Source: an uncultured Acidobacteriota bacterium (lineage in GTDB: Bacteria; Acidobacteriota; Thermoanaerobaculia; UBA5066). From it: a DNA stretch of 64,000 nucleotides. Below the pieces are notes generated by a model. It did not search any database, had not been told where the DNA came from, and was given only the letters and a program-made list of their open reading frames with translations. The DNA lies in contig CAVZYA010000001.1 in NCBI GenBank assembly GCA_963779415.1, positions 516,519 to 580,518 on the forward strand, in the 5' to 3' direction. Both the position numbers and the translations under genes were made by a program. Below, piece after piece: positions 18,192-63,207 of the stretch (position 1 is the first letter of the stretch; each line of letters begins with the position of its first letter).

Positions 18192-19415
18192 ATGAGCAGC
18201 GAGAACGACGTCGCGCAGACTCAGGAGGACCAGCCGATCGGCTGGCAGCGCCTCGGCGACGTCCTGACACCGCCGATTCCCGGCTTCGAGGACCTCCTCT
18301 TCCTTCCGAGCCTCGACAATCAGTCCTCCAACATCTACGTCCTGCCGGGGGACTGCGTAACGATCGTGGACCCGGGGAACGATTACACGGCCTTAATGGA
18401 GCTCTTCCCTGCGAGAGCCAGGCCCGAGGACGTCAGGAAGATCGTCCTGACGCACGGGCATTTCGACCACGCCATGGGGGCGCTCGAGTTCCTCAGGACG
18501 TATCCGGATCGCCCCACGGGCGCGCGCATCGAGCTGATCCTCCACGAAGGGGGTCCCGACCAGTTCAAGCAGACGGCGAGGGAGCAGGGCGCCTCCGTGA
18601 CCGAGGTACGGGGCGGGGAGACTCTCGAGCTGAGCGGCCTTTCCTTCGACGTGATCTACACGCCAGGCCATACCATCGACGGCATCGCCCTCTATCACGC
18701 CCCCTCGAGGACCGTCTTCAGCGGCGACGTCGTGCTGCCGCTCGCGGTAGCCGGACCCGATCCCAAGGCCGGGGGAAGCCTGGACCAGTACCTGTTCGGG
18801 CTGAGGGCGTTGCTCGCGAGGGAGATCGAGAACGTCCTCCCGGGCCACGGCCCCGTCGTCGGCCCGGGCGGGAGGAAGGTCATCGAGCAGACCTACGAGG
18901 CCGTCATGATGAAGCTCCTGGGGGTCGAGAAGCCGATCCCGTGGATCCAGGGTGCCATTCAGCTCGCGGAGCGCGGGCTGCTGGAAGAGGCCGTTTTCTG
19001 CGCCGGGAAAGAGCTGGCCCGCGACCCGGGGCACGCCAAGGCCCTCGAGCTCAAGGCCGTGTGCCTCAACGATCTCGGGCGGTCGTCTGAGGCCCTCGAG
19101 GTCCTGGATCGGCTGCAGGAGCTGCAGGCCGGCGACGATGCGTTCATCCACGTCGGCAGGGGATATGCCCTCATGGGGCTTGGCCAGTTCGAGGAGAGCG
19201 TCAAGTGCTTCGACGCCGCTCTCCGCATCACGCCGGGCCTGAGGGACGCGCTCGTCTACAAGGGGATGGCCCTCCATCTCTCGGGGAACCACGAGGAGGC
19301 CATGGACATCGAGCCCTTCAGGACGGAGTTCATGGGGCGGTTCCGGAGCGAGCTGCTCAAGGCGTCGCGGCCCGCCCCGAAGGATGGCCTCGCCGAAGGC
19401 ACTGGAAAGGCCTGA
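18192..19415 (+). CDS. Metallo-beta-lactamase-fold hydrolase fused to TPR repeats
   Basis: AAGGAG lies 5 nt upstream. Motif VLTHGHFDH (HxHxDH) and TPGHT. The C-terminal ~150 aa are TPR-like helical repeats (..AKALELKAVCLNDLGRSSEALEVLDRL..). Confidence 0.85.
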   Translation: MSSENDVAQTQEDQPIGWQRLGDVLTPPIPGFEDLLFLPSLDNQSSNIYVLPGDCVTIVDPGNDYTALMELFPARARPEDVRKIVLTHGHFDHAMGALEFLRTYPDRPTGARIELILHEGGPDQFKQTAREQGASVTEVRGGETLELSGLSFDVIYTPGHTIDGIALYHAPSRTVFSGDVVLPLAVAGPDPKAGGSLDQYLFGLRALLAREIENVLPGHGPVVGPGGRKVIEQTYEAVMMKLLGVEKPIPWIQGAIQLAERGLLEEAVFCAGKELARDPGHAKALELKAVCLNDLGRSSEALEVLDRLQELQAGDDAFIHVGRGYALMGLGQFEESVKCFDAALRITPGLRDALVYKGMALHLSGNHEEAMDIEPFRTEFMGRFRSELLKASRPAPKDGLAEGTGKA

Positions 19416-19540
19416 AAAAAGACTTCGAGATCCCGGGGCCAAGGGATAGACTCGCTCGCGTTTCACCCCAGATTCCGACCGCGGCCCGCGTCGCCGGCCT
19501 CTCCCGGCGAGCCGGGCAAGAGACAGGAGGAGACGTCGCC

Positions 19541-21214
19541 GTGAGCACGATTCCCGAAAACTATCTTCCCCCGAAGGAGTTCCAACCCGAGCGGATCTAC
19601 AAGCTGAAGGAGTTCGCGAGCTACCCGGATCCGCTGAACAGCACCGAGGAGCTACTCGACAAACAGATCGCCGCGGGCCGGGGCGACAGCCCGGCGGTCC
19701 TCTTTGCGGACAAGGTCCTGACCTACAAGCAGCTTCTGGGGGCGTCCTGCAAGATCGGGAACGCGCTCCGGAAGCTGGGGGTCGAGGAGTCGGACCGGGT
19801 GTTGCTCCGCTCTCCGAACGTTCCGCCCGCCCTCTTCACGAACTTCGGGGTCCTGAGGCTCGGGGCGGTCATCGTCCCGACCTCTCACATGCTCTCCCCC
19901 CCGGAGATCATCCACATCGCCAACAACGCCGAGGCGAAGGTGATCGTGGTGGCGTCCGCGTTCCTCGAAGGGGTCATCAAGGCGCGCCCGAACCTGAAGA
20001 CCGTCAAGCACGTCATCGTCTTCGGCGGCCAGCCCGAGGAGCTGAAGAAGCAGGATCTTCTCTGCTACGAGGAGCTCGTCGCGAACGAGGCGCCGGCCTT
20101 CGCCCCGGTACGCCGTCCGCGCAAAGCCGTCGCCGTTCTTCTTTACACCTCGGGCACGACCGGCCTGCCGAAAGGGACGGTCCACTACCAGGAAGAGGCC
20201 CTGATCGTTCCGGACACCTTCGGCAAGTACGGATGGAACGTCCAGCCGGAAGACATCATCTGCGGACCCGCGCCCATCTCGCTGGCCGGCGGATACTCGA
20301 CCGTGGCGACGATCCCCTTCCGGTTCGGCGCCGCGGCCTCCCTGATTCCCAAATTCACGCCGGACGGGCTCTTCGAGACGGTCCAGAATCACAAGGTGAC
20401 GATCCTGAGCGCCCTCCCCACGGCGTACCGCAAGATGCTCGAGGTTCCCGGCGCGGAGAAGAAATACAACCTCTCCACCCTCCGCGTCCTGACCGGTGGC
20501 GGTGAATCGCTGACCGCAAAAACCTACAACGACTGGAAGGGGCGCTTCGGCCAGGAGATCTACGAGGGGCTCGGCACGTCGGAGATGATGTACGTCTTCG
20601 TCTCGAGCGTGGTGACGCGGAAAGTCAAGCCCGGCGCGATCGGCACCGCCGTCCCCGGTTACGAGATCCAGGTCATCACCGAGGAGGGAAAGGTCGCCAA
20701 GCCCGGAGAGCTGGGCCGGCTTTACGCCCGCGGGCCGACGGGGACGCTCTACTGGCGCCCGTACGAGGACGGCGGCAGCATGCTGGAGAAGCAGAAAGCC
20801 GTCATCCGCGAGGGGTGGGTGCTCGTCGGGGACTTCTGCACGATAGACGACGACGGGTACCTCAGCTTCGTGTCGCGCCAGGAGGACCTGATCAAGAGCT
20901 CCGGCTACCGGATCGGACCCGAGGAGGTCGAGGACGCTCTTCTCAAGCACCCGGCCGTGGCGGACGCCGGCGTGATCGGGGTTCCGGACCCCGTCCGGGG
21001 CCACAACGTCAAGGCCTTCGTCCTCCTGAGGCCCGGACAGACGCCGAGCGACGAGCTGAAGCAGCAGATCATCGACAGTTGCCGAGATCACATCGCGATC
21101 TACAAGCTTCCCCGCATCATCGAATTCACGAGCGAACTCCCGCGCACCCTCCAGGGGAAGCTCCTCCGGCGGGTTCTGCGGGACAAGGACAAGGGGGCGG
21201 CTCCCGCGAGCTAG
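19541..21214 (+). CDS. AMP-forming acyl-CoA synthetase (benzoate-CoA-ligase-like)
   Basis: ORF 19205..21214 trimmed to GTG 19541, after AGGAGGA. AMP-binding motifs LLYTSGTTGLPKG, GYRIGPEEVE and a C-terminal ..LPRTLQGKLLRR. Confidence 0.9.
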   Translation: MSTIPENYLPPKEFQPERIYKLKEFASYPDPLNSTEELLDKQIAAGRGDSPAVLFADKVLTYKQLLGASCKIGNALRKLGVEESDRVLLRSPNVPPALFTNFGVLRLGAVIVPTSHMLSPPEIIHIANNAEAKVIVVASAFLEGVIKARPNLKTVKHVIVFGGQPEELKKQDLLCYEELVANEAPAFAPVRRPRKAVAVLLYTSGTTGLPKGTVHYQEEALIVPDTFGKYGWNVQPEDIICGPAPISLAGGYSTVATIPFRFGAAASLIPKFTPDGLFETVQNHKVTILSALPTAYRKMLEVPGAEKKYNLSTLRVLTGGGESLTAKTYNDWKGRFGQEIYEGLGTSEMMYVFVSSVVTRKVKPGAIGTAVPGYEIQVITEEGKVAKPGELGRLYARGPTGTLYWRPYEDGGSMLEKQKAVIREGWVLVGDFCTIDDDGYLSFVSRQEDLIKSSGYRIGPEEVEDALLKHPAVADAGVIGVPDPVRGHNVKAFVLLRPGQTPSDELKQQIIDSCRDHIAIYKLPRIIEFTSELPRTLQGKLLRRVLRDKDKGAAPAS

Positions 21215-32148: not shown

Positions 32149-34179
32149 TCAGTCCGCCCTACCGAGGACGACCCGCGCATCCACGACCGTGAGCCCGCTC
32201 TCGTGAACGAGGACCGGATTCAGGTCCATCTCGTCGATCTCGGGGTGCCGCGCCACGAGGTCCGAGAGCTGCACGAGAAGGCGGCGCAGGGCCGACACGT
32301 CGGCCGGCCTCGCTCCGCGGACCCCTTTGAGCAGCTTCGCTCCCCGGGTCTCCTCGATCATCTCGGCCGCGTCTTTCTCTCCGAACGGCACGATCCGGAA
32401 GGAGACGTCCTTGAAGAGCTCCACGAGAGTCCCCCCCATGCCGAACATGACGGCATGCCCGAACTGGAGATCGCGGGTCACCCCGACGATGACCTCCGGT
32501 CCGGCCGCGGACATGGCGCTCACGAGGACTCCCCCGTCCCGCGCGCCGATTCGCTTCACGATGCCGCCGATCTCCCGGAAGGCCTTCCGGACTCCCGACT
32601 CGTCTCTCACGTTCAGGATCACTCCCCCGACGTCGCTCTTGTGCGTCACGTCGACGGAGTTCATCTTCACCGCGACGGGGTATCCGATCTCCCCCGCCGC
32701 CCGGACGGCCTCCTCCTCGTTCCCAGCCTGCCGCGAGGAAACGACCGGCAACCCCTCGCGCACGAGAAAGCTGATGGAGTCTGCCGGGGAGAGTGACCTC
32801 GCGGCGGACGACGGAGCCGATGCCACGGCCGCCGGGGCCGCCTCCACCGTCCGGGGCCAGCGGTCGCCGGCGAAGCGGACATGGCAGGAGAGCGCCTTGA
32901 CGGCGCGCTCCGGCGTCGGAAAGACGGCGATTCCCTTCTCGTGAAGGAGAAGCCGCTCGGCGCGCTCCACGTCGGCGCCGCCAAGGAACGCGACGAGGTC
33001 GTTCCGGCCCGGCTCCAGGGCCGTCGAGGCGTTTGCGATCGGATCCCCGAAGATCGTCAGAACGACGTCGTAGTGATCCCGTGACGTCGCGATGACTTTC
33101 CGGAAACAGTCGGCGTCGCCGTCGCCCGTCAGGTCGAGGGGGTTCCCGACGATGAAATGGGATGGCAGCGTCCGCCGCAGCTCCGAAGCCAGGGCCGCGG
33201 GGAGCGGGCTCACGTGGAAACCGTTGTCCGCCGCGACGTCGGTGGCGATGATGGCCGAGCCTCCGGAGCTGGTGACGATCAGCATCCGGGGGCCCGCGGG
33301 TGCGGGAACGTAGGCGAGGGCCTTGGAAAAATCGTAGAGCTCCTCGAGGGAGGCCGCGCGGTGGATCCCGTACTGCCGGAAGACCGCGTCGTAGATCTCG
33401 TCCTTCGTGGCGAGCGTCCGGGTGTGCGATTCGGCGGCCTTGCGTCCCTGATCGGTCCGGCCGGCCTTGAAGATGACGATGGGCTTGCGGCATTCCTTCA
33501 CGGCGGCCAGGAACCGTTTGGGGTCGCGTATGCCTTCGATGTAAAGGGTGATCACCTTCGTGTTCGGATCGGACGCGAAGAAGGTGATCAGGTCGGCCTC
33601 GTCCACGTCGATCCGGTTCCCCATGCTCACGAAGGCCGAAAAGCCGAGCCTCTCCTCGGCCGCCCAGTCGATCAGCGCCGCCCCGACGGTTCCGCTCTGA
33701 GACGCGATGGCCATCGCCCCTTTCCGCGTGATGAGCGGCCAGGAGGCGCAGAGGCCGTGGTGGGGGTAGTTCACTCCCTGGCAGTTCGGACCGACGACGC
33801 GGATGCCGCACCGGGTGGCGTTCTTCTTCAGCTCTTCCTGAAGGCGGGCCCCGTCCGACCCCGATTCGGCGAAACCTCCCGTGATGACGATGGCCGCCCG
33901 GACCTTCCGTTCGCCGAGCTGAAGGATCGTCTCGGGGACGGAGAGGGCCGGAACGATGACGACGGCCAGGTCCGTTCCGGACGGGATCTCCCCCACCGAC
34001 CGGACGGACGGCGTTCCGAGAATCGTCTCCCCCTTCGGATTCACGGGGGTGACGGGCCCGGCGAAGCCCGCGTCGAGGATGTTCTTCAGGATCTGGTACC
34101 CGAGCTTCCCCGGTTTCGCGGAGGCGCCGATGACGGCAAGGCCGTTCGGCCGAAAGAGAGCCTGCAGGGAGTCGTTCAT
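32149..34179 (-). CDS. ADP-forming acyl-CoA synthetase (acetate--CoA ligase family, fused alpha/beta)
   Basis: 676 aa. CoA-binding N-terminus LFRPNGLAVIGASAKPGKLGYQIL..PVNPKGETILG, and a C-terminal ATP-grasp region (..GYPVAVKMNSVDVTHKSDVGGV..). Confidence 0.9.
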   Translation of the reverse strand: MNDSLQALFRPNGLAVIGASAKPGKLGYQILKNILDAGFAGPVTPVNPKGETILGTPSVRSVGEIPSGTDLAVVIVPALSVPETILQLGERKVRAAIVITGGFAESGSDGARLQEELKKNATRCGIRVVGPNCQGVNYPHHGLCASWPLITRKGAMAIASQSGTVGAALIDWAAEERLGFSAFVSMGNRIDVDEADLITFFASDPNTKVITLYIEGIRDPKRFLAAVKECRKPIVIFKAGRTDQGRKAAESHTRTLATKDEIYDAVFRQYGIHRAASLEELYDFSKALAYVPAPAGPRMLIVTSSGGSAIIATDVAADNGFHVSPLPAALASELRRTLPSHFIVGNPLDLTGDGDADCFRKVIATSRDHYDVVLTIFGDPIANASTALEPGRNDLVAFLGGADVERAERLLLHEKGIAVFPTPERAVKALSCHVRFAGDRWPRTVEAAPAAVASAPSSAARSLSPADSISFLVREGLPVVSSRQAGNEEEAVRAAGEIGYPVAVKMNSVDVTHKSDVGGVILNVRDESGVRKAFREIGGIVKRIGARDGGVLVSAMSAAGPEVIVGVTRDLQFGHAVMFGMGGTLVELFKDVSFRIVPFGEKDAAEMIEETRGAKLLKGVRGARPADVSALRRLLVQLSDLVARHPEIDEMDLNPVLVHESGLTVVDARVVLGRAD

Positions 34180-34290: not shown

Positions 34291-34968
34291 CTACGCCCCG
34301 GGGGGCGAAAGGAAGCTCTCGAGCCGATCCTCATTCAGGATGAAGTGGCCCCCCTCTCGCTTGAGAAGGCCCATCTGCCTGAACCTGTTCACCTGCGTCG
34401 TGACCGTCTCGCGGGTGGTCCCGATCAGCTTGGCCAGGTCCTCGTGGGTCAGCCGGAGGGGAATCAGCGTCCCTCCGGCCGTCCTCACGCCGTGCTCCCT
34501 CCCGACCTGGAGCAGGACTTTCCCGAGCCTTTGGTACGACCACGTGTGGCCGAAAGCCGCGTACCCCTGCTCGATCTTGACGAGCCGCTTCGACAGGAGG
34601 CGGATGAAGTTCCGGGCGACCGCTGGAAAGGCGGACAGAATCTCCTCGAGGCTCTTCCTCGGGATGACGGTGACGACGACCTCCGTCTTCGTCACGGCGT
34701 CGAAGGCCCGCTTCTCCTCCGCGAAGAGAAGCTCGCCGAAGATCTCTCCCGGCTTCAGGATGTGGAGGGTGGTCTCGCCCCCTCTGCCCGAGACCGAGAC
34801 GAGCTTCACGATGCCCTCCGCGACGATGAACATGGCGTCCGCGCGGTCTCCCTCCGAAAAAACCGGGACTCCCTTCGCATAACGCCGCTCGCCAAAAATC
34901 CGCGTGATCCGGCGCATCTCCTCGTCGGCCACTCCCCGGAACAGCTCAAGGGCCGTCGGGCGCACCAC
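34291..34968 (-). CDS. Crp/Fnr family transcriptional regulator
   Basis: cNMP-binding fold (..GDRADAMFIVAEGIVKL..GEIFGELLF..) plus a C-terminal HTH (LTHEDLAKLIGTTRETVTTQVNRF). Confidence 0.9.
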   Translation of the reverse strand: MVRPTALELFRGVADEEMRRITRIFGERRYAKGVPVFSEGDRADAMFIVAEGIVKLVSVSGRGGETTLHILKPGEIFGELLFAEEKRAFDAVTKTEVVVTVIPRKSLEEILSAFPAVARNFIRLLSKRLVKIEQGYAAFGHTWSYQRLGKVLLQVGREHGVRTAGGTLIPLRLTHEDLAKLIGTTRETVTTQVNRFRQMGLLKREGGHFILNEDRLESFLSPPGA

Positions 34969-35118: not shown

Positions 35119-35331
35119 TCAGGCCGCGCGGCGCATTTCGACGTCACGGGGGAGGAAATCGACCAGCTCCGACTCTGAAGAGGACGACTCCGTCCAGAAG
35201 AACCTCTTTCCGGCCTTTTCCTTGTCGGCGAGAGAGCCGAGAAGAATCCCTTCGACGGCGATGACGAGAAGCGCCAGGGCGGCAAGAACAACTCCCGGCC
35301 CGACGGTGAGTTCCGTAAGAATGCCTTCCAT
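35119..35331 (-). CDS. Possible small membrane protein
   Basis: 70 aa with one hydrophobic helix (GPGVVLAALALLVIAVEGILLGSL) and a GGGGGTGAG SD-like sequence upstream. Weak support. Confidence 0.35.
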   Translation of the reverse strand: MEGILTELTVGPGVVLAALALLVIAVEGILLGSLADKEKAGKRFFWTESSSSESELVDFLPRDVEMRRAA

Positions 35332-35391: not shown

Positions 35392-37287
35392 GTGCGACCT
35401 TTCACAACCCTCTCGGAAAGGAAGCTAGACTCGCCCCGCGTGATCGAAAACCAGCGACGCGCAGACGAGAGGCCTTTCAGCGTCCCTCGGTCGAAACAGG
35501 AGATCCTCGGGGATCTCGAGACATTGATCGCGGAGAGAAAGCTCTTCGGCGCGGAGCTGAACCCGACGATTCTCAAGAAGAGCGGCAAGGGAGCGCGATT
35601 TCTCGTCAGCAAGGTTCCCTCGCGGCGAAAGCTCCTTCGGAGCTGGAGGGCCCTCTTCGAGGACCGGATCCCGCCCGCCGCCCTCTTCCGGGCCCTCGGT
35701 CCCCGCTACGGCGAGTTCTCGCACCGGGAGAGCCTCCTCCTCTTCGGCAGGAACCGCATCCTCTACGACACGCAGATTCTCGAGGGCGAGGAGAGCGTCG
35801 GCGAGGTGACGCTCAGCTTCGCGTCTCTCCCGGATCCGGCGCTCGGGCTCACGGCCTTTCTCCGGGGCCGCCGCATCAGGGTCGTCTACATCGACCACAT
35901 CCGCGTGAACGCGCAGCGCTCCGGCTACGCCGCGACGCTGTTCCGCCACTACGAGGGGCTCTTCCGGGACCTGGGCTTCCGCGAGTTCCGGCTGAACGCG
36001 TCTCTTTCCATCGGTCGGTACTACTGGGGAAAGGAAGGATTCGATTTCGCCGACAGGTCCGAGGTCGAAAGGAGAAAGCAGGCCCTGCGTACTCTCGTCC
36101 GGGAGAAGGGCCTTCCCGTGCGCGAGATCGAGATCGGGCGTCTGAACCACCCGTTCGATCTCGCCGGGTTCCGGAAGGACCTGAGGATCCCCGTCTACCG
36201 GGATGCCGACGGATACCACTCGCTGACGGCCGATGAGCGGTTCACCGAGGAGGTCCAGCTGCCGCTGGGCAAGGCCTTCCTTCTCGCCTCGGCACCCTGG
36301 GAGGGGTACAAGACGATCTACACGAAGACACCCCGGAGGACGGGCTTCGTGACCTCTCCCGAATACCTTCGGCACCAGACCCGTGCCGGCCACCCGGAAA
36401 GCCACAAACGGCTCCGCGCCCTTCTCGCGGCCATCGAGAAGGAGGACCTCCGGAGGAGCCTCGTCTTCCTTCCTCCCTACGTCCCCGACCTCGAGTTCCT
36501 CGGGACGGTCCATGCCCCCGAGTACCTCGAGAGGTTCCGCGAGAGCGTCCGGAACGGAGACAAGATCTTCTCAACGAGAGACTGCTCGATCTCGGCCGCG
36601 ACCTGGGACGTCGCCCTTCTCGCGGCCGGCGGCGCGATGGCCGGCGTCGACGCCGTCATGAACGGGAGGGTCAAGAACGTCTTCTGCGCCGTGAGGCCCC
36701 CGGGGCATCACGCGGGACGGGCGTCCACGATGGGATTCTGCTTCATCAACAACGTGGCGGTCGGCGCCGTCTACGCACGGGCCGTCTACGGCGTCGAACG
36801 GATCTTCATCCTCGACTGGGACGTCCACCACGGAAACGGGACGCAGGCGATCTTCGAGGCGGACCCCCTGACGTACTACTGCAGCATCCACGAGCACCCG
36901 ACCTTCTGCTTTCCGGGGACGGGACGGCGGATGGAGCGGGGAACGGGGGCGGGAGCAGGGTTCACGCTGAACCTGCCGCTCAAGCCGTTCGCGGGGGACG
37001 AGGAGCTGGTGGAGACCTTCGAGAGGGAGGTCGTCCCGGAGATCGACCGGTTCCGGCCCGGCCTGATCATGATCTCCGCGGGGTTCGACGGACACGACAA
37101 CGACCCGATCGCCGACCTCCGGCTCACGAGGGAGTCATTCATCCACATGACGCGGAGGCTCTGCGAGCTGGCGGACCGCCATTGCGCCGGCCGCATCGTC
37201 TCGGTTCTCGAAGGAGGGTACGAGGGCCCCTGGTTCGCCTCGTCGGTCCTCGCCCATCTCCTGACGCTTCAGGGAAGGAGCCAATAA
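35392..37287 (+). CDS. Fusion protein: GNAT-like N-terminal region + class II histone-deacetylase-family (HDAC/APAH) domain
   Basis: N-terminus: YIDHIRVNAQRSGYAATLFRHYEGLFRDLGFREF (GNAT motif-A-like RxxGxA). C-terminus: RPPGHHAG, ILDWDVHHGNGTQ, SAGFDGHDNDP and LEGGYE. The GTG start at 35392 is uncertain. Confidence 0.85.
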   Translation: MRPFTTLSERKLDSPRVIENQRRADERPFSVPRSKQEILGDLETLIAERKLFGAELNPTILKKSGKGARFLVSKVPSRRKLLRSWRALFEDRIPPAALFRALGPRYGEFSHRESLLLFGRNRILYDTQILEGEESVGEVTLSFASLPDPALGLTAFLRGRRIRVVYIDHIRVNAQRSGYAATLFRHYEGLFRDLGFREFRLNASLSIGRYYWGKEGFDFADRSEVERRKQALRTLVREKGLPVREIEIGRLNHPFDLAGFRKDLRIPVYRDADGYHSLTADERFTEEVQLPLGKAFLLASAPWEGYKTIYTKTPRRTGFVTSPEYLRHQTRAGHPESHKRLRALLAAIEKEDLRRSLVFLPPYVPDLEFLGTVHAPEYLERFRESVRNGDKIFSTRDCSISAATWDVALLAAGGAMAGVDAVMNGRVKNVFCAVRPPGHHAGRASTMGFCFINNVAVGAVYARAVYGVERIFILDWDVHHGNGTQAIFEADPLTYYCSIHEHPTFCFPGTGRRMERGTGAGAGFTLNLPLKPFAGDEELVETFEREVVPEIDRFRPGLIMISAGFDGHDNDPIADLRLTRESFIHMTRRLCELADRHCAGRIVSVLEGGYEGPWFASSVLAHLLTLQGRSQ

Positions 37288-37922
37288 TGTTCGTCGGCAA
37301 GCGGATGACAAAGAACGTGATCACGGTCTCGCCGGGAGACACCCTGAAATTCGCCAGCCACGCCCTGATGGAGAACCGGATCCATCAGCTCCCGGTCGTG
37401 GAGAACGGCGAGCTGGTCGGCTTCGTGTCGGGCACGGACATCCGCAACTCGACCTTCGAGACCTCGACGGTCACGCAGCTCGGAAAGATCCTCGTGAAGA
37501 ACCGGACCGTCGCGGAGATCATGATGCGCGACGTCGTCACGGTGATGCCGGAGGACACGATCGAAGACGCGCTCCTCGTCATCCACAAGAGGAAGCTCGG
37601 GGCCCTCCCCGTCGTGGAGGGGCGGAAGCTGGTCGGGATCATCACGAAGCGGGACCTCCTGGCGGCCTTCTGCGACGCCCTCAAGATCGAGGAGCCGGGG
37701 GTCCGGATCGAGGTCATCCTCCCACGCGGGGCCGCTTCCCTCGTCCCCCTCGTTCGGAAGCTCGCGGACATGGAGGCCGAGATCTGGAGCCTGATCCTTT
37801 CGCCCGTCCCCGGCGGCTTCCTCGCCCTCGTCCGCCTCGCCACGATCGACGCGGGTGGCGTTCGGAGGGCCCTTCGCGATGCCGGCTTCATCGTCCCGGA
37901 CGTGGCGGACTTCCTGAAGTAG
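37287..37922 (+). CDS. CBS-pair + ACT domain protein (AcuB-like)
   Basis: ATG 37287 overlaps the upstream TAA by 1 nt. Two CBS motifs (MTKNVITVSPGDT..IHQLPVVENGELVGFVSGTDI; MMRDVVTVMPEDT..LGALPVVEGRKLVGIITKRDL) and an ACT-like tail. Confidence 0.85.
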   Translation: MFVGKRMTKNVITVSPGDTLKFASHALMENRIHQLPVVENGELVGFVSGTDIRNSTFETSTVTQLGKILVKNRTVAEIMMRDVVTVMPEDTIEDALLVIHKRKLGALPVVEGRKLVGIITKRDLLAAFCDALKIEEPGVRIEVILPRGAASLVPLVRKLADMEAEIWSLILSPVPGGFLALVRLATIDAGGVRRALRDAGFIVPDVADFLK

Positions 37923-37943: not shown

Positions 37944-39278
37944 CTACCGGAGCTGATAGCCTTTCATCTTCCGCCAGAGGGTATTGCGCGAGATGCCGAG
38001 TGTGGCCGCGGCCCGGCCCCGGTGGCCGCCGTGCCGCGCGATCGCGTCGCGGATGGTCTCCGCCTCGGCCTGCTCCAGGGGACTCGCGCCGGGGGGGGCC
38101 GCGATCGCCGGCGCGCCGGGGAGCGAGGCGATCTGGGAGGGGAGGTCGGAGACCTCGATGATCGAGCCGCCGCAGACCACGAAGGCGTGCTCGATGGCGT
38201 TTTCGAGCTCCCGCACGTTCCCGGGAAACGAATGGGACATGAGGCGCGCCATCGCCGTCACCGAGATACCCGAGATGCGCCTCCCCTGCGCGGCGTTGAA
38301 GCGCGCGATGAACCGCTCGACGAGGAGCGGGATGTCCTCTGGGCGGCTCCGGAGCGGCGGCAGGGTCAGCCGGACGATGTTCAGGCGGAAGTAGAGGTCC
38401 TGGCGGAAGCGCCGGTTCATCACCTCCGCCGCGAGGTCGCGGTTGGTCGCGGCAATGATCCGTACGTCGGCCTTCGCCGGCTTGACGGCGCCGAGCGGCG
38501 TGTACTCCCGCTCCTGAAGGACCCGCAGAAGCTTGACCTGTATGGCCGGCGACAGCTCGCCGACCTCGTCGAGGAGGAGCGTCCCTCCCTGCGCGAGGGC
38601 GAAACGGCCGGGCTTGTCCTTCTTGGCGTCGGTGAAGGCGCCGCGGACGTAGCCGAACAGCTCCGATTCCACGAGGGAGTCCGGGATGGCGCCGCAGTTG
38701 ACCGCGACGAAGGGCTTTCGGGAGCGCGCCCCGAGGTTGTGGATCGCCCTCGCGACGAGCTCCTTTCCGGTGCCGGGCTCCCCCTCGATCAGGACGGTCG
38801 CGTCGCTCCGGGCGATGAGCGGCAGCATGTCGCGCACATGACGCATCGCCGCGCTCTTGGAGATGACGTCATCCGACTTGTAGCTGGCTTTCAGCTGGCG
38901 ACGCAGCTCGGCGACCTCGGAGAGGTCGCGGAACATCTCGACCCCCCCGATCACCTGTCCGTCCTCGCCACGCAGCGCCGCCGTGCTGACGGCGATCGGA
39001 ACGGAGCGCCCCTCCTTCCGGAGGATCGAGACCTCGCTGTCGGCATGGCTCTGGCCGGCCCGCATGCTGTCGCGCAAGAGGCAGTTCCTCTCGCATCCGG
39101 TGCTCCGGAGCACATCGCCACAGAAGCGCCCCAGAACCTCTTCCCGGCCGTAGCCCGTGATCTCCTCCGCCGTCCGATTGAAGGCCGTGATCCGGCAGTC
39201 GCCGTCTACGGTGAAGATCGCGTGCGGGATGGAGTTGAAGATCAGGTTCGCGTACCTGATGACGAGAGCCCGCTGCAT
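37944..39278 (-). CDS. Sigma-54-dependent transcriptional activator (PAS + AAA+ + Fis-type HTH; no receiver domain)
   Basis: Motifs GEPGTGKELVARAIH, GAFTDA (a GAFTGA variant), LLLDEVGEL and a C-terminal ..AAATLGISRNTLWRKMK. The N-terminal PAS carries a C-x8-C-x3-C motif. Confidence 0.92.
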   Translation of the reverse strand: MQRALVIRYANLIFNSIPHAIFTVDGDCRITAFNRTAEEITGYGREEVLGRFCGDVLRSTGCERNCLLRDSMRAGQSHADSEVSILRKEGRSVPIAVSTAALRGEDGQVIGGVEMFRDLSEVAELRRQLKASYKSDDVISKSAAMRHVRDMLPLIARSDATVLIEGEPGTGKELVARAIHNLGARSRKPFVAVNCGAIPDSLVESELFGYVRGAFTDAKKDKPGRFALAQGGTLLLDEVGELSPAIQVKLLRVLQEREYTPLGAVKPAKADVRIIAATNRDLAAEVMNRRFRQDLYFRLNIVRLTLPPLRSRPEDIPLLVERFIARFNAAQGRRISGISVTAMARLMSHSFPGNVRELENAIEHAFVVCGGSIIEVSDLPSQIASLPGAPAIAAPPGASPLEQAEAETIRDAIARHGGHRGRAAATLGISRNTLWRKMKGYQLR

Positions 39279-39430: not shown

Positions 39431-39446
39431 TGGCACGTTGATTGCC
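39431..39446 (+). promoter_or_regulatory. Sigma-54 (-24/-12) promoter
   Basis: TGGCAC-gttga-TTGC matches TGGCAC-N5-TTGC exactly. It lies 43 bp upstream of ATG 39489 and is divergent from a sigma-54 activator gene. Confidence 0.7.
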
Positions 39447-49207: not shown

Positions 49208-50467
49208 ATGGAAGAGAAAACGCTCAGTCGCTCCTGGCGCATCGTCGGGGGCCTCTTCATGAACCTGGCGCTCGGCTCTCTGTATGCCTGGAGCGTCTTC
49301 GTCGCGCCCCTGGAGAAGGAATTCGGGTGGAAGCGGGCGGACACGTCCCTCGTCTTCACCTGGGCCGTCGTCGTCTTCGCGATCGCCTTCATTCTCGCGG
49401 GGCGGCTGCAGGACAAGCTCGGGCCCTTCAGGATCTCTCTCACCGGCTGCATCCTCCTGACGGCGGGTTTCATCCTCTGCATGTGGACCAGCAGCCTGAC
49501 CTATTTGATCATCTGCTTCGGCGTCCTCGTCGGCATCGGGAATGGCTTCGGCTACGCGACGCCGATTCCCGTCATGGCGAAGTGGTTCCCGGACAAGCGA
49601 GGCCTCGCCGTCGGACTGGCCGTGGCCGGCTACGGGGGCGGCTCGGCCATCTTCGGACCGCTCGCGAATCTCTGGCTCATCCCGGCGTTCGGGTGGCGCA
49701 GCACCTTCGTCATCCTCGGAGCGATCTTCTTCGTCATGACGCTCATCGGCTCTTTCCTGCTGAAGAACCCTCCGGTGGGCTACCGGCCGCCGGGATGGAC
49801 GCCCGCCGCCGCGGCCAGGACGACGGCCACGGCCTACGAGTTCTCTCCCGGTGAGATGTGGCGCACCCCGGCGGCGTATTTCATGTGGATCGCGTACGCG
49901 CTGGGCACGTCGGCCGGTCTCATGGTCATAAGCCAGCTCGTCCCCTTCGCCAACAGCATGAAAATCCCGAGCGAGGCGCTGGCGGCGATCACGCTCGTCA
50001 TCGGCGCGGCGGGGAACGCCTCGGGCCGGATCTTCTCGGGGTGGATGTCCGACGCACTCGGACGCCTCAATGTCCTGCGCCTCATGATCGGCATCTCCGC
50101 GGTCGCCATGCCGGTCCTCTACCTTACCGGCGGCAACGTGGGGCTGCTCTACGTCATGGTCTTCGTCGTCTACTGGTGCTACGGCACGCAGCTTTCGGTG
50201 AACGCGTCCACGACGTCCGATTTCTGGGGGACGAAGAACGCCGGGATCAACTACGGCATCCTGTTCACCGCCTGGGGCGTGGCCGGCATCCTGGGACCCC
50301 GGATCGGCGGCGCGTTGTTCGACAAGTACAAGAACTACGAAGCGGCTTTCTTCGTCGCGGCGGGCCTTGCCGTCGTGGCCCTCCTCTTCGAGCTTCTGGC
50401 GAGACGCCCCGCCGCGCCGGTGCAGACCGGCGTGGAGGCGCGACTCGCCGCCGGGGTCAAGGCCTGA
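49208..50467 (+). CDS. MFS transporter, oxalate/formate antiporter (OFA) family (second copy)
   Basis: 419 aa. WRIVGGLFMNLALGSLYAWSVF and AGRLQDKLGPF parallel the transporter at 6119-7345. Confidence 0.88.
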   Translation: MEEKTLSRSWRIVGGLFMNLALGSLYAWSVFVAPLEKEFGWKRADTSLVFTWAVVVFAIAFILAGRLQDKLGPFRISLTGCILLTAGFILCMWTSSLTYLIICFGVLVGIGNGFGYATPIPVMAKWFPDKRGLAVGLAVAGYGGGSAIFGPLANLWLIPAFGWRSTFVILGAIFFVMTLIGSFLLKNPPVGYRPPGWTPAAAARTTATAYEFSPGEMWRTPAAYFMWIAYALGTSAGLMVISQLVPFANSMKIPSEALAAITLVIGAAGNASGRIFSGWMSDALGRLNVLRLMIGISAVAMPVLYLTGGNVGLLYVMVFVVYWCYGTQLSVNASTTSDFWGTKNAGINYGILFTAWGVAGILGPRIGGALFDKYKNYEAAFFVAAGLAVVALLFELLARRPAAPVQTGVEARLAAGVKA

Positions 50468-50602: not shown

Positions 50603-51463
50603 CTAGGAAGAAAAGAGAGCGGCGGCGTTTTCGAAGAGGATCTTCCGCTTCACATCGGCCGGAAGCGGGAGCGAGAGAAACTCCTCCACGTTCCGGCGCA
50701 TCGACCGGACCCCCATCGAGGGCCAGTCCGTGCCCCACAGGACCCGGTCGGCAACGTCGCCGAGCCTCGGGAGGACGTCGAGAAGCCTCCTCGGCGGGAT
50801 CCCCGAGACGTCGAGCCGGACGTTCGGATGCCGGCGGACCAGAAAGAAGGCCGTGTCATACCAGAGCGGCCGGCCCGCGTGACAGAGGACGAGGGTCGTC
50901 CCGGGAAAGTCGACCGCCACGTCGTCGCACGGCATCGGGTCGGCGTGGACGTTCCGGGCTCCGGGGAATATGGACGTCCCGGTATGGATCAGGACGGGCC
51001 GCCTCGCTTCGCCGGCCAGCCGGTAGACCTCGGCGAGGGAGGGGCAATCGGTCCTGTAGGCGTTCGCCGCCAGCTCCATGTGCGGGGGGTGGATCTTGAT
51101 CGCGCCGACGCGGTGGACGTCGAGGAGCCTCTTCATCTCCCCGGCGACGTCGCGCGTGTGCCGAGGATGGATTCCGCCGACCGGGACGAGACGGTCGCGG
51201 TGTCCCGCGACGTATCGGGCGATCCAGGGGTTCACGCTCGCCGTGAGGCCCATGACCTCGGGCGAGACGGAGGTGATCAGCGCGGCCCGGGCGATTCCCT
51301 CGGCGTCCATCGCCTTGAGAAGCTCGTCGGCCGACTCGCCCACCCGCGCGACGAGGTCGAGGTCTTCCCGTCCCTCCGTCATCGCCCGCCGGGCCCCTTC
51401 CTTGAGCTGGTCGTTCGGGCCGACGTGGATGTGGGCGTCGAAAACCGGGAATGACGGCGACAC
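50603..51463 (-). CDS. Amidohydrolase-2 family metal-dependent hydrolase (TIM barrel)
   Basis: FDAHIHVGPND at the N-terminus, IHPPHMEL, LIHTG and LVLCHAGRPLWYD. Confidence 0.85.
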   Translation of the reverse strand: MSPSFPVFDAHIHVGPNDQLKEGARRAMTEGREDLDLVARVGESADELLKAMDAEGIARAALITSVSPEVMGLTASVNPWIARYVAGHRDRLVPVGGIHPRHTRDVAGEMKRLLDVHRVGAIKIHPPHMELAANAYRTDCPSLAEVYRLAGEARRPVLIHTGTSIFPGARNVHADPMPCDDVAVDFPGTTLVLCHAGRPLWYDTAFFLVRRHPNVRLDVSGIPPRRLLDVLPRLGDVADRVLWGTDWPSMGVRSMRRNVEEFLSLPLPADVKRKILFENAAALFSS

Positions 51464-51548
51464 CCGCGGGATAATAACGAAGCCCGGCCGTCGCTCCTTC
51501 GGTGCTAAGCTGAAGGGGACGGGGGGAAAGGGGACGACTTCCGCGCCG

Positions 51549-54354
51549 ATGCGAACCCTCTTCCTGCCGCCGACCTACCAGGACTCCGCGGAATCGGGTC
51601 GGCTCATCCTGCGCGACGGATCGACGGCATTCATCCGCCCGGCAGAGCCGTCGGACTTCGAAGAGCTGCGGGAGTTCTTTCGCCAGCTCTCGCCCGAGTC
51701 GAAGCGCCGCCGCTTCTTCTCCATCGCCGACCCGGCGAAGGCGCTCCTCGAACGGCAGTGCGATTCCTCCAATCCCCGCGTCCAGCTGACTCTGATCGTC
51801 ATCCGGATCGTGAGCGGCGCCTCGCGGATCATCGCGACCGCCTCCTACGTCGCGCGGGACGAGACGAGCGCCGAGGTCGCCTTCGCGGTCGACGACGAGT
51901 TCCAGGGACGAGGCCTCGGAGGCCTCCTTCTCGAGCGCCTGGCCCTCATCGCCGCCCGGTACGGCTTTGTCCGCTTCTGGGCCGTGACGCGTCTCGAGAA
52001 CGCCCTGATGCTCGACACGTTCCGCCGCTCGGGCTTCCCGCTCCACACGAAGGTCGAGGACGAGTGTGTCGAGATCGACTTCTCCGTCGCCCAGAGCGAG
52101 GACAGCGTCAGTCACTCGGAGTCGCGGGACCGTCTCTTCACCACGGCCTCGCTCCACCCCCTGTTCCGTCCCCGCGCCGTCGCCCTCATCGGCGCCTCAC
52201 GCGACGTCTCCAGCATCGGCTGGCGCATCCTCGACGGGCTCGTTCAGAGCGGCTTTCACGGCCCGGTCTACGCGGTGAACCCGAATGCGACGCACGTCCA
52301 CTCGCTGCCGGCCTACTCTTCGGCCCGCGAGATCCCGAAGGGGACCGATCTCGCCATCGTGGCGATCCCGCGCGAGGGCGTGCTGGATGCCGTGGACGAT
52401 TGCGCCGCCGCCGGCGTCCGCGCCCTCGTCGTCGTCACGGTCGGCTTTCTGGACAGCTATTCCGGAGGACGTGACCTGCAGGAGAAGCTCCTCGAGAGGG
52501 TTCGCGGCCACGGGATGCGCCTCGTCGGTCCCAACTCGATGGGCGTCGTCAACACCGATCCGGAGATCCGGCTCAACGCCTCGGTCTCCCCCGTCCTGCC
52601 TCCACGCGGGAGCGTGGCGATGTCGTCCCAGAGCGGCGTCCTCGGCATGGCGATGCTGGCTCTCGCGCGGCAGCGCCATGTCGGCGTCTCGACCTTCATC
52701 AGCGTCGGCAACAAGGCCGACATCTCCGGCAACGACCTTCTGCAGTACTGGCAGGGGGACGATGCGACACGCGTCATCCTTCTCTATCTGGAGTCCTTCG
52801 GAAATCCGCGCCGCTTCGCCCGGATCGCGCGGGTCGTGAGCCGGGAAAAGCCGATCGTCGTCGTGAAGGCGGGACCGGCCCCGGAGCCCGCCCGATCCGC
52901 CGCCGCGACGCTCGTCGCGGGCGAAGCCGTCGTGAACGCGCTCTTCCGTCAGACGGGGGTCATCCGGGCCGACACGCTGGACGAGATGTTCGACCTCGCG
53001 GCCGCTCTCGACCGGCAGCCTCTTCCGGCAGGGCGCCGCGTCGCGATCCTCTCGGACGGGAGCGGTCCCGGCATCCTCTGCGCGGGCGCCTGCGAGGCGG
53101 CCCGTCTGACCGTGCCGCCGCTCTCGGAGACGACGGCGGAGCGGCTCGCGACTTTCCTCCCCTCCGGCACGCCGATCGGCAACCCCCTGGAGCTCGTCTT
53201 CTCGCCGACTCCGGAGCCGTACCGGCAAGCCCTCGAGACGCTCCTCAAGGCTCCCGAAGTGGACGCCCTCATCGCGATTCACACGCCGCTCGACGAGAGC
53301 GGTTCGGAGGCCATGGTGGAGGCGATCCGGCAGGGAGCCGCGGCGGCGCGCGCCTCGGGAGGCGACGGCAAGCCGGTCCTCGCGTGCCTCCTCGCGAAGG
53401 AGGACGCCGGTGCGCCGGTGGTTCTCGGAGAGTCGAGCATTCCGACGTATGCGTTTCCGGAGTCGGCCGCGCGGGTTCTCGGGAAGGTGGCCGCTTACGC
53501 GGAGTGGCGCGCCGGCTCCGCACGGGGTCATTCCCGACTTCGACGACATCGACCCGGCGGCCGCCCGTTCGATCTGCCGGAAAGCGATCGAGGAGCGCGG
53601 AGCCGGACCTCTCACTTCGGACGAGGCGAGGGCGGTCCTTCAGGCCATGCACCTTCCCGTCGCTCCGGGCGGGGTCGCCCGGACGCCCGACGAGGCCGTG
53701 GCGCTCGCCCGGGGAATCGGATTTCCCGTCGCCGTCAAGCTCGCTTCTCCCCGGATCCGCCAGAAGACCGAGAAGGGAGCCGTTCACCTGAACGTGGAGG
53801 AGGAGATCGGGGTCCGGCTGGCTTTCGGGGCGATCCGAAAGACGAGGGAAGCGGATCACAACCCGGAGGCGATGGAGGGAGTGCTGGTCCAGCCGATGGC
53901 CGGAACCGACGTCGAGGTGATGGTGAGAGTCGTGGAGGACCCTCTCTTCGGGCCTCTCGTCGTCTTCGGTCTGGGCGGGATCCACGTCGAGGTGATCGCC
54001 GATGCGGGTCTGCGCGTGACGCCGCTGACCGATCGCGCCGCCCAGGCGATGGTCCGGGAGATCCGGGGTTATTCCCTCCTCGAGGGGTACCGGGGGCATC
54101 CTCCCGCCGACGTTTCGGCCATCCACGACGTCCTTCTGCGCGTCTCTCGCCTCGTCGAAGAGGTCCCCGACATCTCGGAGGTCGATCTGAGCCCGATCTT
54201 CGTCGGGCCCCCCGGCGGAGGGTGCTACATCTTCGACTCGCGAATCGACGTGGCTCTCCCCCGGAAGGACCGGGCGGCCCGCTACACCGTTCCCCCCCTT
54301 CCCGTCGTCCGCAAGGAAGCGGTCGCCATCTCCCCCGCCGAGGCGCCGAGGTAG
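51549..54354 (+). CDS. Pat-like bifunctional GNAT acetyltransferase / NDP-forming acyl-CoA-synthetase-like protein (GNAT at the N-terminus); one apparent +1 frameshift at ~53524-53527
   Basis: ATG 51549 lies within ORF 51078..54383; the upstream part of that ORF is antisense to the amidohydrolase. GNAT: VDDEFQGRGLGGLLLERL. CoA-binding: LFRPRAVALIGASRDVSSIGWRIL..AVNPNATHV. The ATP-grasp part continues in ORF 53410..54354 (..GFPVAVKLASPRIRQKTEKGAVHL..). Confidence 0.85.
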
Positions 54355-54366
54355 CGAGGAGCTTTC

Positions 54367-54813
54367 ATGACCGATTTCCCTGACCACGACTGGCTCTGCC
54401 GGAGAATCGTCGAAGACTCCCCGGTGGCGATTCTTTTTGCCGACCGGGAAGGAACGATCCGCCTCTGGAACGCGGGGGCCGAGGCGATGTTCGGCTACCT
54501 GGCAGACGAGGCGCTCGGCCAGTCGATGGACCTGATCATCCCAGAGCGCCAGAGGCCCCGGCACTGGGAAGGCTGGAAGAAGGTGATGGCGACCGGAGTC
54601 ACGCGGTACGGCCGCGAGGTGCTGGCGGTTCCGGCCATGCGAAAGGACGGCTCGCGAATCTCCATCGAGTTCAATATCCTCCTGCTGCGGACGGGCGACG
54701 GCGGGATCCCGGGCGCGGCCGCCCTGATTCAGGACGTGACGGCCCGGTGGCAGCGAGAGAAAGAGATGAAGGCGCGCCTCGCGGCCCTCGAAGCCGGGGC
54801 GCGGGAGGGCTGA
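54367..54813 (+). CDS. Stand-alone PAS domain protein
   Basis: 148 aa: IVEDSPVAILFADREGTIRLWNAGAEAMFGY..EALGQSMDLIIPE..RKDGSRISIEF. Confidence 0.85.
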   Translation: MTDFPDHDWLCRRIVEDSPVAILFADREGTIRLWNAGAEAMFGYLADEALGQSMDLIIPERQRPRHWEGWKKVMATGVTRYGREVLAVPAMRKDGSRISIEFNILLLRTGDGGIPGAAALIQDVTARWQREKEMKARLAALEAGAREG

Positions 54814-61456: not shown

Positions 61457-62581
61457 TCAGGTCCAGTACTGGCGGGCGAGGTCGAGCAGCCGCTCGGCCA
61501 CCTGCCGGTTGCGGTGCGAAACCTCGTAGCGGTTCGGGACGTCCGGACGCGCCGTCAGGGGATCGTGAAGGCTCTCCGGCAGCGTCTCGCCGACGGCCCC
61601 CTGCCATCTTTCCCTCCAGGGCTCCGGAACCCCGGACACGATCGGAAGATCGTGCAGCAGGAGATAGAGGATGGCCCAGATCCGCGGGGCCGCTCCGAAC
61701 GAGTAGCCGCCCCCCAGCGTGAAGAGAACCCTCCCCGAGGCAAACAGCTCCGCCCACTCGAGGATCTGCCGGAAGAGAGCTTCGTAGTCCCGCGTCGTCA
61801 GCATCAGATCGGCGAGCGGATCGTCGAAATGCGCGTCGGCCCCGGCCTGGACGACGAGGACGTCGGGCCGGAAGTGCCGGAGCGCCGGCGGGAGCACCTG
61901 TTCGAAGACCTCGCGATAGCTCTCGCCCGCGGTGAACGGCTGGAGGGGCACGTTGAGCTTCAGGCCGCGGCCCGCGCCGGCGCCGAGTTCCCGGATCTCG
62001 CCGCTTCCCGGAAAGAGAAACTGCCCCGACTCGTGAAGGCTGAGGGTCATCACGCCCGGGTCTTCGTAGAGGATCTCCTGGACGCCGTTTCCGTGATGGA
62101 CGTCGATGTCGATGTATGCGGTCCGGAGGCCCCTCCGGGTGAACAGGTCGATGGCGACCGCGAGATCGTTGTAAATGCAGAAGCCCGAAGCGGAGCTTCG
62201 CCCCGCGTGATGGAGTCCCCCACCCAGCTGAAGGACCCGCTTTGCATTCCCTTCCGCGATGAGACGGGCCCCGAGCAGGGTCCCGCCCACGTGCAACCGG
62301 GCGGCCTCGTCCATGCCGGGGAAGGCGGGCGTGTCCTGGGTACCGAGCCCGTACACCGCCGCGTCGGGAACCGTTCCGCCCGCGCTCAGCTCCTCCACGC
62401 GCTGCACGTAGGCGTCGGCGTGGACGGCGAGAAGGTCCTCTCTCGTGGCGGGCTCCGGCTCGACCGACTCCACGGAATGGCCGAGCGCAGAGACGAGATC
62501 GAGAGTCATCTCGACACGGAGCGGGCTGAACGGATGCTTTTCGCCGAAAGAGTATTTCCGGTAGGCCGGGGCGAAGATCAC
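61457..62581 (-). CDS. Histone deacetylase family protein (AcuC-like)
   Basis: ORF 61457..62986 trimmed to GTG 62581 (GTGA overlap with the upstream stop). Motifs GGGLHHAG, YIDIDVHHGNGVQ, VQAGADAHFDDP and LGGGYS. Confidence 0.88.
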   Translation of the reverse strand: MIFAPAYRKYSFGEKHPFSPLRVEMTLDLVSALGHSVESVEPEPATREDLLAVHADAYVQRVEELSAGGTVPDAAVYGLGTQDTPAFPGMDEAARLHVGGTLLGARLIAEGNAKRVLQLGGGLHHAGRSSASGFCIYNDLAVAIDLFTRRGLRTAYIDIDVHHGNGVQEILYEDPGVMTLSLHESGQFLFPGSGEIRELGAGAGRGLKLNVPLQPFTAGESYREVFEQVLPPALRHFRPDVLVVQAGADAHFDDPLADLMLTTRDYEALFRQILEWAELFASGRVLFTLGGGYSFGAAPRIWAILYLLLHDLPIVSGVPEPWRERWQGAVGETLPESLHDPLTARPDVPNRYEVSHRNRQVAERLLDLARQYWT

Positions 62582-63207
62582 CGCGGGCACGGCTTCTCCG
62601 GGGGCCAGAGGACCTGGAAGCCGCCTTTCCGCAGGTCCTGCGCCAGATAGGCGGTCTCCATCGAACCGATCCGCAGCACGGTGCGAATGGCACTCGGCCC
62701 CTCCGGATAGGAGAGGATCGAATGGATGTTCAGCTTCCGTTCGCTGAGGAAGCCGGCGAGGCGTGCCAGCTCGCCGGGCTGATCCGGAAGGCGCACGTCG
62801 AGGCGGCCCGACGGCTTGTCGACGCCCGTCATCCGGATGAGGGCGTCGAGCAGATCGAGGCCGGTCACGATCCCGATCAGGCGCCCGTCGTCCAGGACGG
62901 GAAGGCAGCCGATCTTCCGCTCGCGCATGACGCGCGCGGCGTCCTCGATCGGATCCGAGGGATCCGCCGTCAGCGGGCGGGAACACATGACGCCGGAGAC
63001 CCGGCTGCCGGGGGAGAACGGGTTCGGCACGAGGACGCTCGTCGCCAGCCTCAGATCGCGGTCCGTGATGACGCCGACGAGCCTTCCTTCGTCCAGGACG
63101 GGCAGATGCCGGATTCCCTTCTCCCGCATCGTTCGGTATGCGTCTTCAAGGGTGGTGTCCGCGGAGACGGTCACGGCCGGACTCCGCATGATGTCCCGTA
63201 CCAACAT
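62578..63207 (-). CDS. CBS-pair + ACT domain protein (AcuB-like)
   Basis: MLVRDIMRSPAVTVSADT..IRHLPVLDEGRLVGVITDRDL; a second CBS ..IGCLPVLDDGRLIGIVTGLDL; and an ACT-like tail. Confidence 0.85.
   Translation of the reverse strand: MLVRDIMRSPAVTVSADTTLEDAYRTMREKGIRHLPVLDEGRLVGVITDRDLRLATSVLVPNPFSPGSRVSGVMCSRPLTADPSDPIEDAARVMRERKIGCLPVLDDGRLIGIVTGLDLLDALIRMTGVDKPSGRLDVRLPDQPGELARLAGFLSERKLNIHSILSYPEGPSAIRTVLRIGSMETAYLAQDLRKGGFQVLWPPEKPCPR

Follow-up and report, generated by a model that had tools for sequence, protein, structure and literature searches.

A single gene in a 64,000-nucleotide stretch of DNA from an uncultured Acidobacteriota bacterium (contig CAVZYA010000001.1, positions 516,519 to 580,518 of the forward strand; hereafter the window, meaning the whole stretch analyzed) encodes a divergent GNAT-fold domain fused to a class II zinc-dependent deacetylase domain of the HDAC family, and is directly followed by a gene for an AcuB-like protein with two CBS domains and an ACT domain. 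We propose that these two genes constitute a reversible-acetylation module, a non-orthologous analogue of the AcuABC system in which the AcuB-like partner would gate the deacetylase, a reading to which we give roughly even chances. Accounts of protein acetylation in bacteria usually assign the opposing activities to different proteins, the writers (Pat, AcuA and other GNATs) and the erasers (CobB, AcuC and HdaH). Our literature search, which is not proof of absence, turned up no description of a GNAT-HDAC fusion, and none of a class II deacetylase partnered by an AcuB-type protein. All parts of the locus belong to known superfamilies and its logic mirrors that of AcuABC. More tentatively, and with the balance somewhat against it, we suggest that this may be the first recognized natural prokaryotic fusion of a writer and an eraser of lysine acylation, its direction set by acetyl-CoA and by an adapted AcuB-like energy or alarmone sensor, and that its N-terminal domain may represent a new GNAT family that also occurs in tandem in giant proteins.

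Two domains in one polypeptide

The longest open reading frame (ORF) of the locus runs from 35392 to 37287 on the forward strand, 631 codons counted from a GTG; residues are numbered below on this 631-residue ORF unless stated otherwise. As a preliminary description of this DNA had proposed, the one frame holds both a string resembling GNAT motif A, within VVYIDHIRVNAQRSGYAATLFRHYEGLFRDLGFREF at residues 164-199, and, after it, all of the HDAC hallmarks (PPGHHA, DWDVHHGNG, GFDGHDNDP and EGGY). The true start is more likely to be the second GTG, at 35440, giving a gene of 35440..37287 and a protein of 615 residues, because many homologues, several of them with a methionine encoded by ATG, begin at exactly this position and because a public 615-residue protein called on a 2.18-Mb public contig (P0254) is 100% identical. 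The N-terminal domain is complete with either start. The same description had allowed for a start so far downstream that only the HDAC domain would be made; this is not the case, the whole N-terminal domain being conserved in frame in about 60 species. The window has a GC content of about 66% with a clear coding bias at third codon positions (GC3), and this bias is even along the whole fusion ORF.

The deacetylase domain occupies 36391..37263 (residues 334-624; Pfam Hist_deacetyl, E = 8.6e-91) and is intact, as had been thought, with its hallmarks in register: RPPGHH (H439 and H440), GFC, DWDVHH (D475 and H477), GFDGHDNDP (D566) and EGGY (Y610). It shows 32-37% identity to the second catalytic domain (CD2) of HDAC6 and to the bacterial HdaH/HDAH enzymes, again with the catalytic motifs aligned, and PPGHHA/RPPGHH, GFC, DWDVHHGNG, GFDGHDNDP and LEGGY are invariant in 63 fused homologues. 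The best matches in the PDB were HDAC6, the HDAH PA3774, KpHdaH, 5ji5 and 5zmp. In a Foldseek comparison the nearest folds were those of the compact 305-residue 5ji5 and 5zmp ("lysine deacylase"), with template modeling (TM) scores, normalized to the target, of 0.94 and 0.91, respectively; PA3774, KpHdaH and HDAC6 CD2 came next, the scores ranging overall from 0.8 to 0.94, relative to the target. The cluster 1 deacylases (PA3774, KpHdaH, Bordetella HDAH, 5ji5 and 5zmp) and HDAC6 CD2 have the same complete catalytic set as the fusion, whereas the fusion has in addition some 300 N-terminal residues with a GNAT fold, and an AcuB-like partner. The AcuC-like class I enzyme encoded elsewhere in the window is only 35% identical to the fused HDAC domain. 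Judged by sequence and predicted structure, the fused deacetylase is of class II, which corresponds to cluster 1 in the classification of Graf et al. (PMC11532494), and is closer to HDAC6 and HdaH than to AcuC. In that classification, RPPXHH together with EGGY is the mark of robust deacetylases whose foot pocket is small (PMC11532494).

The N-terminal domain has no such ready assignment. No Pfam or NCBIfam model matched residues 1-333 at E <= 0.1, the PDB sequences gave only chance matches to the profile of the N-domain family (a lipocalin at E = 0.12), and a Foldseek search with the full fusion found no solved structure sharing the domain, nor any solved chain spanning over half the fusion, the query-normalized TM score being at most 0.49. 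Residues ~31-312 (35482..36327), whose family also occurs as stand-alone proteins of about 300 residues, had nevertheless been supposed to adopt a GNAT fold, and the supposition is upheld by a confident model, by a conserved QxxGxA motif and by distant relatives. The AlphaFold model of the domain, built from a 63-sequence alignment, has a mean predicted local distance difference test (pLDDT) score of 84.6 and a predicted TM score (pTM) of 0.80, with the first 26 residues disordered. The motif A region, YIDHIRVNAQRSGYAATLF (35887..35943, beta4-alpha3), contains Q175-R-S-G178-Y-A180, which matches the Q/RxxGxG/A consensus of the loop that binds the pyrophosphate of acetyl-CoA; in stand-alone as in fused proteins, G178 and Y179 are invariant and the conservation of Q175 and A180 is at least 90%. 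Conservation in the family peaks in a motif-B-like block, SIGRYYWGKEGFDF (36007..36048), in which G208, Y210, Y211, W212, E215, G216 and F217 are invariant.

Searched with the family profile, 1.84 billion representative proteins yielded 365 relatives of the N-domain. The distant ones carry copies of its C-terminal two-thirds, either in proteins of about 300 residues or, frequently as tandem copies, in giant proteins of 1000-5000 residues, and 152 aligned distant copies share the pattern Q-G-x-G-[FI]-[AG]...VG.YAWAR.GFDF...LGKAF(M/L)L...W.G.K. Pfam GNAT models (Acetyltransf_1, _7 and _10) match such distant homologues at the same spot, as in P0121 (Acetyltransf_1, E = 8e-16), P0134, P0131 and P0145, so that the link of the N-domain to GNATs by this route is transitive. 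By modeled fold, motif A and this transitive homology, the N-domain is a member of the GNAT superfamily, in a family that has no curated model. It is not AcuA: aligning the family profile with B. subtilis AcuA, whose sequence was checked against PDB 9g7f, gave an hhalign probability of 0.2%.

Several of the giant proteins, all from outside the window (P0121, P0124, P0125 and P0134 among others), carry up to five tandem GNAT copies, and P0134 additionally has an LPD1 polyvalent-protein domain; they look like a mobile-element or conflict-system family. They share the core pattern with the N-domain but have neither its family-specific first 100-130 residues nor an HDAC fusion, and their mobile-element-like genomic setting is unlike that of the fusion locus.

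The fusion is widespread. A genome scan with one genome per species yielded 71 loci with the N-domain; at about 60 of them the HDAC domain follows in frame with no stop (tblastn and ORF analysis), and frameshifts break the reading frame in only two (L014 and L057). In a search with the full-length protein, fused proteins of 603-632 residues made up at least 221 clusters (90% identity); public annotation calls them only "histone deacetylase" or "AcuC-like", ignoring the N-domain. Such recurrence of the arrangement far exceeds what chance would produce. The junction between the domains, IYTKTPRRTGFV (36316..36351), is kept in all fused forms with the consensus IYT(N/D)TPRRTG(F/I)V, across the same clusters and species and many assemblies and technologies, and is predicted to be ordered (pLDDT 83-96). 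The full-length AlphaFold (AF2) model of the 615-residue protein has a pLDDT of 85.5 and a pTM of 0.86. This pTM, together with the ordered junction, suggests that the two domains are in mutual contact and do not tumble about a linker.

When the N-terminal 318 residues were used as sole query, 106 homologues were found, the best-scoring of which were mostly stand-alone proteins of about 300 residues with no Pfam domain. In a neighbor-joining tree of the N-domain, crude in that it is distance-based and without support values, the stand-alone domains branch within clades of fused proteins on at least three separate occasions. We therefore rejected the stand-alone domain as the ancestral state; the stand-alone copies look like secondary fissions or duplicates. 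Both forms occur in one genome in three cases (L040/L067, L045/L062 and L054/L071). One fused locus, L003, has an unusual 5′ end: between 5569 and 6001, directly after an inserted gene for an SfMCT-type transporter, the fused frame is open from 5572 but runs for about 140 codons without ATG, GTG or TTG. The start may be non-canonical, the 5′ end damaged or the contig wrongly assembled.

The AcuB-like partner and the acuABC operon

The partner gene (37287..37922, forward strand) encodes a protein of 211 residues. Its ATG at 37287 has one base in common with the TAA stop codon of the fusion gene (TAATG); the preliminary description had reported this overlap and the CBS-CBS-ACT architecture, and full-length alignment to AcuB and TTHA0829 confirms the latter. 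Pfam recognized the two CBS domains and its ACT models missed the ACT part; residues 2-206 align to Thermus TTHA0829 (5awe, CBS-CBS-ACT) with an E-value of 1.6e-26, ACT part included, and residues 2-203 to the B. subtilis and Geobacillus AcuB structures with E-values of about 1e-22. The ribose-binding motif G-h-h-[ST]-x-x-D can be read in both CBS domains, as GFVSGTD and GIITKRD. An AcuB-like gene lies directly 3′ of the fusion gene in 55 related loci, its start codon within a few bases of the stop codon or overlapping it, with an ATGA overlap in many of them. Across the roughly 60 uncultured species with the fusion, this arrangement of the three parts is nearly always kept.

In AcuB, the Bateman module binds adenine nucleotides (AMP/ATP) or diadenosine tetraphosphate (Ap4A) (PMC13121692, PMC13039410), and the ACT domain inhibits the deacetylase AcuC, as described in two papers of 2026 (PMC13121692, PMC13039410). 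Met188, on the ACT loop, occupies the substrate tunnel of AcuC, and acuB and acuC are translationally coupled through an ATGA overlap (PMC13039410). Since the partner is a relative of AcuB and AcuB has been shown to be a nucleotide-sensing deacetylase inhibitor, we infer, on good grounds and by analogy, that the fusion protein would be subject to nucleotide regulation through its CBS/ACT partner, as had been suggested at the outset. The ACT-loop motif T186-I187-D188 (37842..37850) aligns with the Met188 position: when Geobacillus 'RVQTMNP' is set against 'RLATIDA' of the partner, Met188 falls on Ile187. The TID motif is invariant in all 55 of the partner proteins; Ile187 is hydrophobic, though not a methionine, and the enzyme it would face is of a different class.

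The locus can be compared part by part with the AcuABC system of B. subtilis and Geobacillus, in which AcuA is a GNAT lysine acetyltransferase, AcuB the CBS-CBS-ACT sensor and AcuC a class I-like deacetylase, with acsA transcribed divergently. Both combine a GNAT-fold writer, an HDAC-fold eraser and an AcuB-family protein in one operon, both couple the AcuB-family gene translationally to the deacetylase gene, and in the clade to which the window belongs the operon also stands beside a divergent acyl-CoA synthetase gene, as acuABC stands beside acsA. The differences are as clear. Here, writer and eraser share one polypeptide, with AcuB following in the order writer, eraser, AcuB; the N-domain is unrelated to AcuA in sequence; the deacetylase is of class II (cluster 1), whereas AcuC belongs to cluster 2c; the plug residue is the isoleucine of an invariant TID, where AcuB has methionine; and the divergent synthetase is ADP-forming and adjoins only 16 of the 62 fused loci, while AcsA is AMP-forming. 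A second parallel is offered by Pat/PatZ, in which a lysine-acetylation writer is fused to a domain of the ADP-forming acyl-CoA-synthetase-like (ACD) type and controls acyl-CoA synthetases. The association of a writer with an ACD-type protein is shared by the fusion locus; unlike in Pat/PatZ, the ACD-like protein is the product of a separate gene and has 676 residues, the GNAT domain is fused to a deacetylase, and the sequence families are different.

A proposed acetylation switch and its rivals

We propose the following scheme, in which the catalytic activities, the substrate and the action of an AcuB-like protein on a class II HDAC domain are assigned from sequence and by analogy. The GNAT domain would acetylate one or more lysines of a protein target using acetyl-CoA, and the attached HDAC domain would remove the mark. 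A dimer of the AcuB-like protein would sense AMP/ATP or Ap4A in its Bateman module and, in one nucleotide state, its ACT loop, with TID in the place of AcuB Met188, would block the HDAC tunnel. Net acetylation would in this way be set by acetyl-CoA supply and energy state. With the two fused, there would be one eraser for each writer (1:1), and both may be directed to the same substrate. The likeliest targets would be acyl-CoA synthetases, either the ADP-forming enzyme encoded at 32149-34179 or AMP-forming ligases with a PX4GK motif such as that at 19205-21214, and the switch would be tied to the use of short-chain carboxylates; acyl-CoA synthetases and carboxylate control are proposed because a synthetase and a monocarboxylate transporter recur as neighbors of the fusion gene.

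A number of points weigh against this scheme. The N-domain shows no relation to AcuA by hhalign, the fused deacetylase is of class II whereas AcuB is known to inhibit the class I-like AcuC, and the plug residue is isoleucine rather than methionine. To our knowledge, ADP-forming acyl-CoA synthetases are not among the enzymes known to be under lysine-acetylation control. Two opposing activities in one chain could also, if left unregulated, run as a futile cycle, and between about a third and roughly half of the loci have neither an adjacent synthetase nor the transporter.

The alternative that fares best, although we consider it unlikely, is that the GNAT-like domain is no transferase but an acetyl-CoA/CoA-sensing or docking module that would regulate or target the attached deacetylase. 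The locus would then encode an eraser with two sensors, for acetyl-CoA through the GNAT domain and for adenine nucleotides through AcuB. The rigid domain packing predicted from the pTM and the ordered junction would suit such allostery, and PMC3814719 offers a precedent in the pseudo-acetyltransferase domain at the C-terminus of O-GlcNAcase, there too fused to a hydrolase that removes a post-translational modification. However, conservation in the domain is highest in motif A and the motif-B-like block, which are common to the distant domains that match Pfam GNAT models, and the persistence of the stand-alone domain in at least three independent lineages that have lost the HDAC argues for a function of its own.

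Slightly less probable again is a small-molecule substrate. A polyamine, an amino acid or another amine would be acetylated by the GNAT domain and deacetylated by the HDAC-type amidohydrolase, the free pool being buffered under AcuB-like control. Many GNATs acetylate small molecules, the HDAC family includes acetylpolyamine amidohydrolases and xenobiotic amidases, and a transporter often adjoins the fusion gene. That transporter, however, is of the monocarboxylate (lactate) type and not an amine carrier, and the only role known so far for AcuB is to regulate a protein deacetylase. The gatekeeper residues bear on the same question: they read PEG in the polyamine deacetylase HDAC10, PLG in HDAC6 CD2 and PIS in the dual-specificity ApaH (PMC11532494). 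In the fusion they are P-I-A, a hydrophobic gatekeeper like that of HDAC6 CD2 but also near the P-I-S of the bacterial ApaH that acts on both polyamines and lysines. Read from sequence, the P-I-A gatekeeper does not decide between a protein and a polyamine substrate; the gatekeeper glutamate is nevertheless absent, which counts against polyamines, as does the compact domain of about 300 residues, with little room for the extended L1/L2 loops of polyamine enzymes. In addition, the nearest relatives are the cluster 1 HdaH enzymes and HDAC6 CD2, with the cluster 4 ApaH last among the 60 matches listed.

Within the more tentative reading of the locus as the first recognized writer-eraser fusion, the group transferred and removed could be a lactyl or some other short acyl group in place of acetyl, and the synthetase would then supply the acyl-CoA donor. 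This variant is raised by the recurrence of an SfMCT-type L-lactate transporter and of an ADP-forming synthetase of the succinyl-CoA-synthetase superfamily, and we give it a slim chance at most.

Finally, the possibility that the fusion is an artefact of assembly or annotation, or the read-through of a pseudogene across two genes, had to be considered because so many top matches of the N-domain-only search stand alone, and some long-read contigs do show frameshifts (L014, L057) or no canonical start (L003), but its probability is practically nil: the same in-frame junction in about 60 species and at least 221 independent clusters rules it out, the GC3 bias is uniform over the ORF, the junction is predicted to be ordered, and the stand-alone forms are nested within fused clades.

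How opposing acetylation activities are balanced is a question to which the 2026 AcuB papers have begun an answer, for Bacilli only. The combination of GNAT, HDAC and AcuB-like parts, hereafter the trio, probes whether AcuB-type regulation reaches class II deacetylases and distant phyla, and it would be a minimal switch of fixed stoichiometry, the directionality of which is open to study in vitro with two proteins. It also contains an unannotated GNAT family, half of the protein being functionally invisible under present database labels. The neighboring synthetases and monocarboxylate transporters suggest a role in controlling the use of acetate or lactate in abundant uncultured bacteria of soil and sediment.

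Genomic neighborhood of the trio

In the window's clade, the trio is divergent from a group of genes on the minus strand, comprising a small membrane protein, a Crp/Fnr regulator and the synthetase. The synthetase (32149..34179, minus strand) is a 676-residue protein with fused alpha and beta parts, recognized by Pfam and NCBIfam as ADP-forming acyl-CoA synthetase-like; it does not reach the cut-offs of the equivalogs for acetate, 3-hydroxypropionate and 4-hydroxybutyrate, and is a candidate target or metabolic partner of the module. Elsewhere it lies downstream in convergent orientation (L029, L033, L051 and L072), and it is still found beside the N-domain gene at three loci where HDAC and AcuB have been lost (L001, L002 and L036). 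The Crp/Fnr-family regulator (34291..34968, minus strand), between the synthetase and fusion genes, is at the same position in L003, L004, L005, L014 and L016. Next to the fusion gene and divergent from it is an ORF for a predicted membrane protein of 69 residues (35122..35331, minus strand), with a single hydrophobic helix and, before its ATG, a good Shine-Dalgarno sequence, GGGGGTGAG; in L003 a small gene has been called at the matching place.

Across species, the commonest neighbor other than AcuB is a transporter of the major facilitator superfamily that scores above the threshold of the SfMCT L-lactate/monocarboxylate equivalog. In a cluster-based gene-order map, it is the immediate neighbor in about 20 loci, and it also precedes the stand-alone copy in L071. 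The SfMCT-type transporter of the window itself (49208-50467, plus strand) is 11 kb away, beside genes for an aldehyde dehydrogenase and an amidohydrolase.

The window carries further genes related to acetylation. A second AcuB of 209 residues (62578-63207, minus strand), in which Pfam recognizes two CBS domains, ACT and TTHA0829-like_ACT, has S-M-E at the plug position, and directly downstream of it lies the class I-like AcuC (61457 to ~62580, minus strand). The pair is preceded by a DUF4388 protein (63221-63967, minus strand), with no AcuA-like gene adjacent. In five genomes (L012, L013, L015, L017 and L018) an AcuB-AcuC pair comes right after the trio. A Pat-like protein (51078-54383, plus strand) has a GNAT domain N-terminal to an ACD domain, the order opposite to that of the enterobacterial Pat, and is followed by a small PAS protein (54367-54813, plus strand); a similar pair is found within a few kilobases of the N-domain gene in L001-L003. 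The AMP-forming acyl-CoA ligase at 19205-21214 (plus strand) ends in LPRTLQGK, fitting PX4GK, the classic regulatory lysine acetylation site, and could be acted on by any of the window's several acetyltransferases.

Sigma-70 and terminator scans, a sigma-54 pattern search and Rfam revealed no regulatory element 5′ of the fusion gene. The best sigma-54 promoter-like site of the window, TGGCACGTTGATTGCC at 39431-39446 (plus strand, one mismatch), sits just 5′ of the gene for a CCG/4Fe-4S protein, which extends to 40880. A PAS-sigma54 activator is encoded divergently from this site (37944-39278, minus strand), and probably controls the CCG/4Fe-4S gene rather than the fusion operon.

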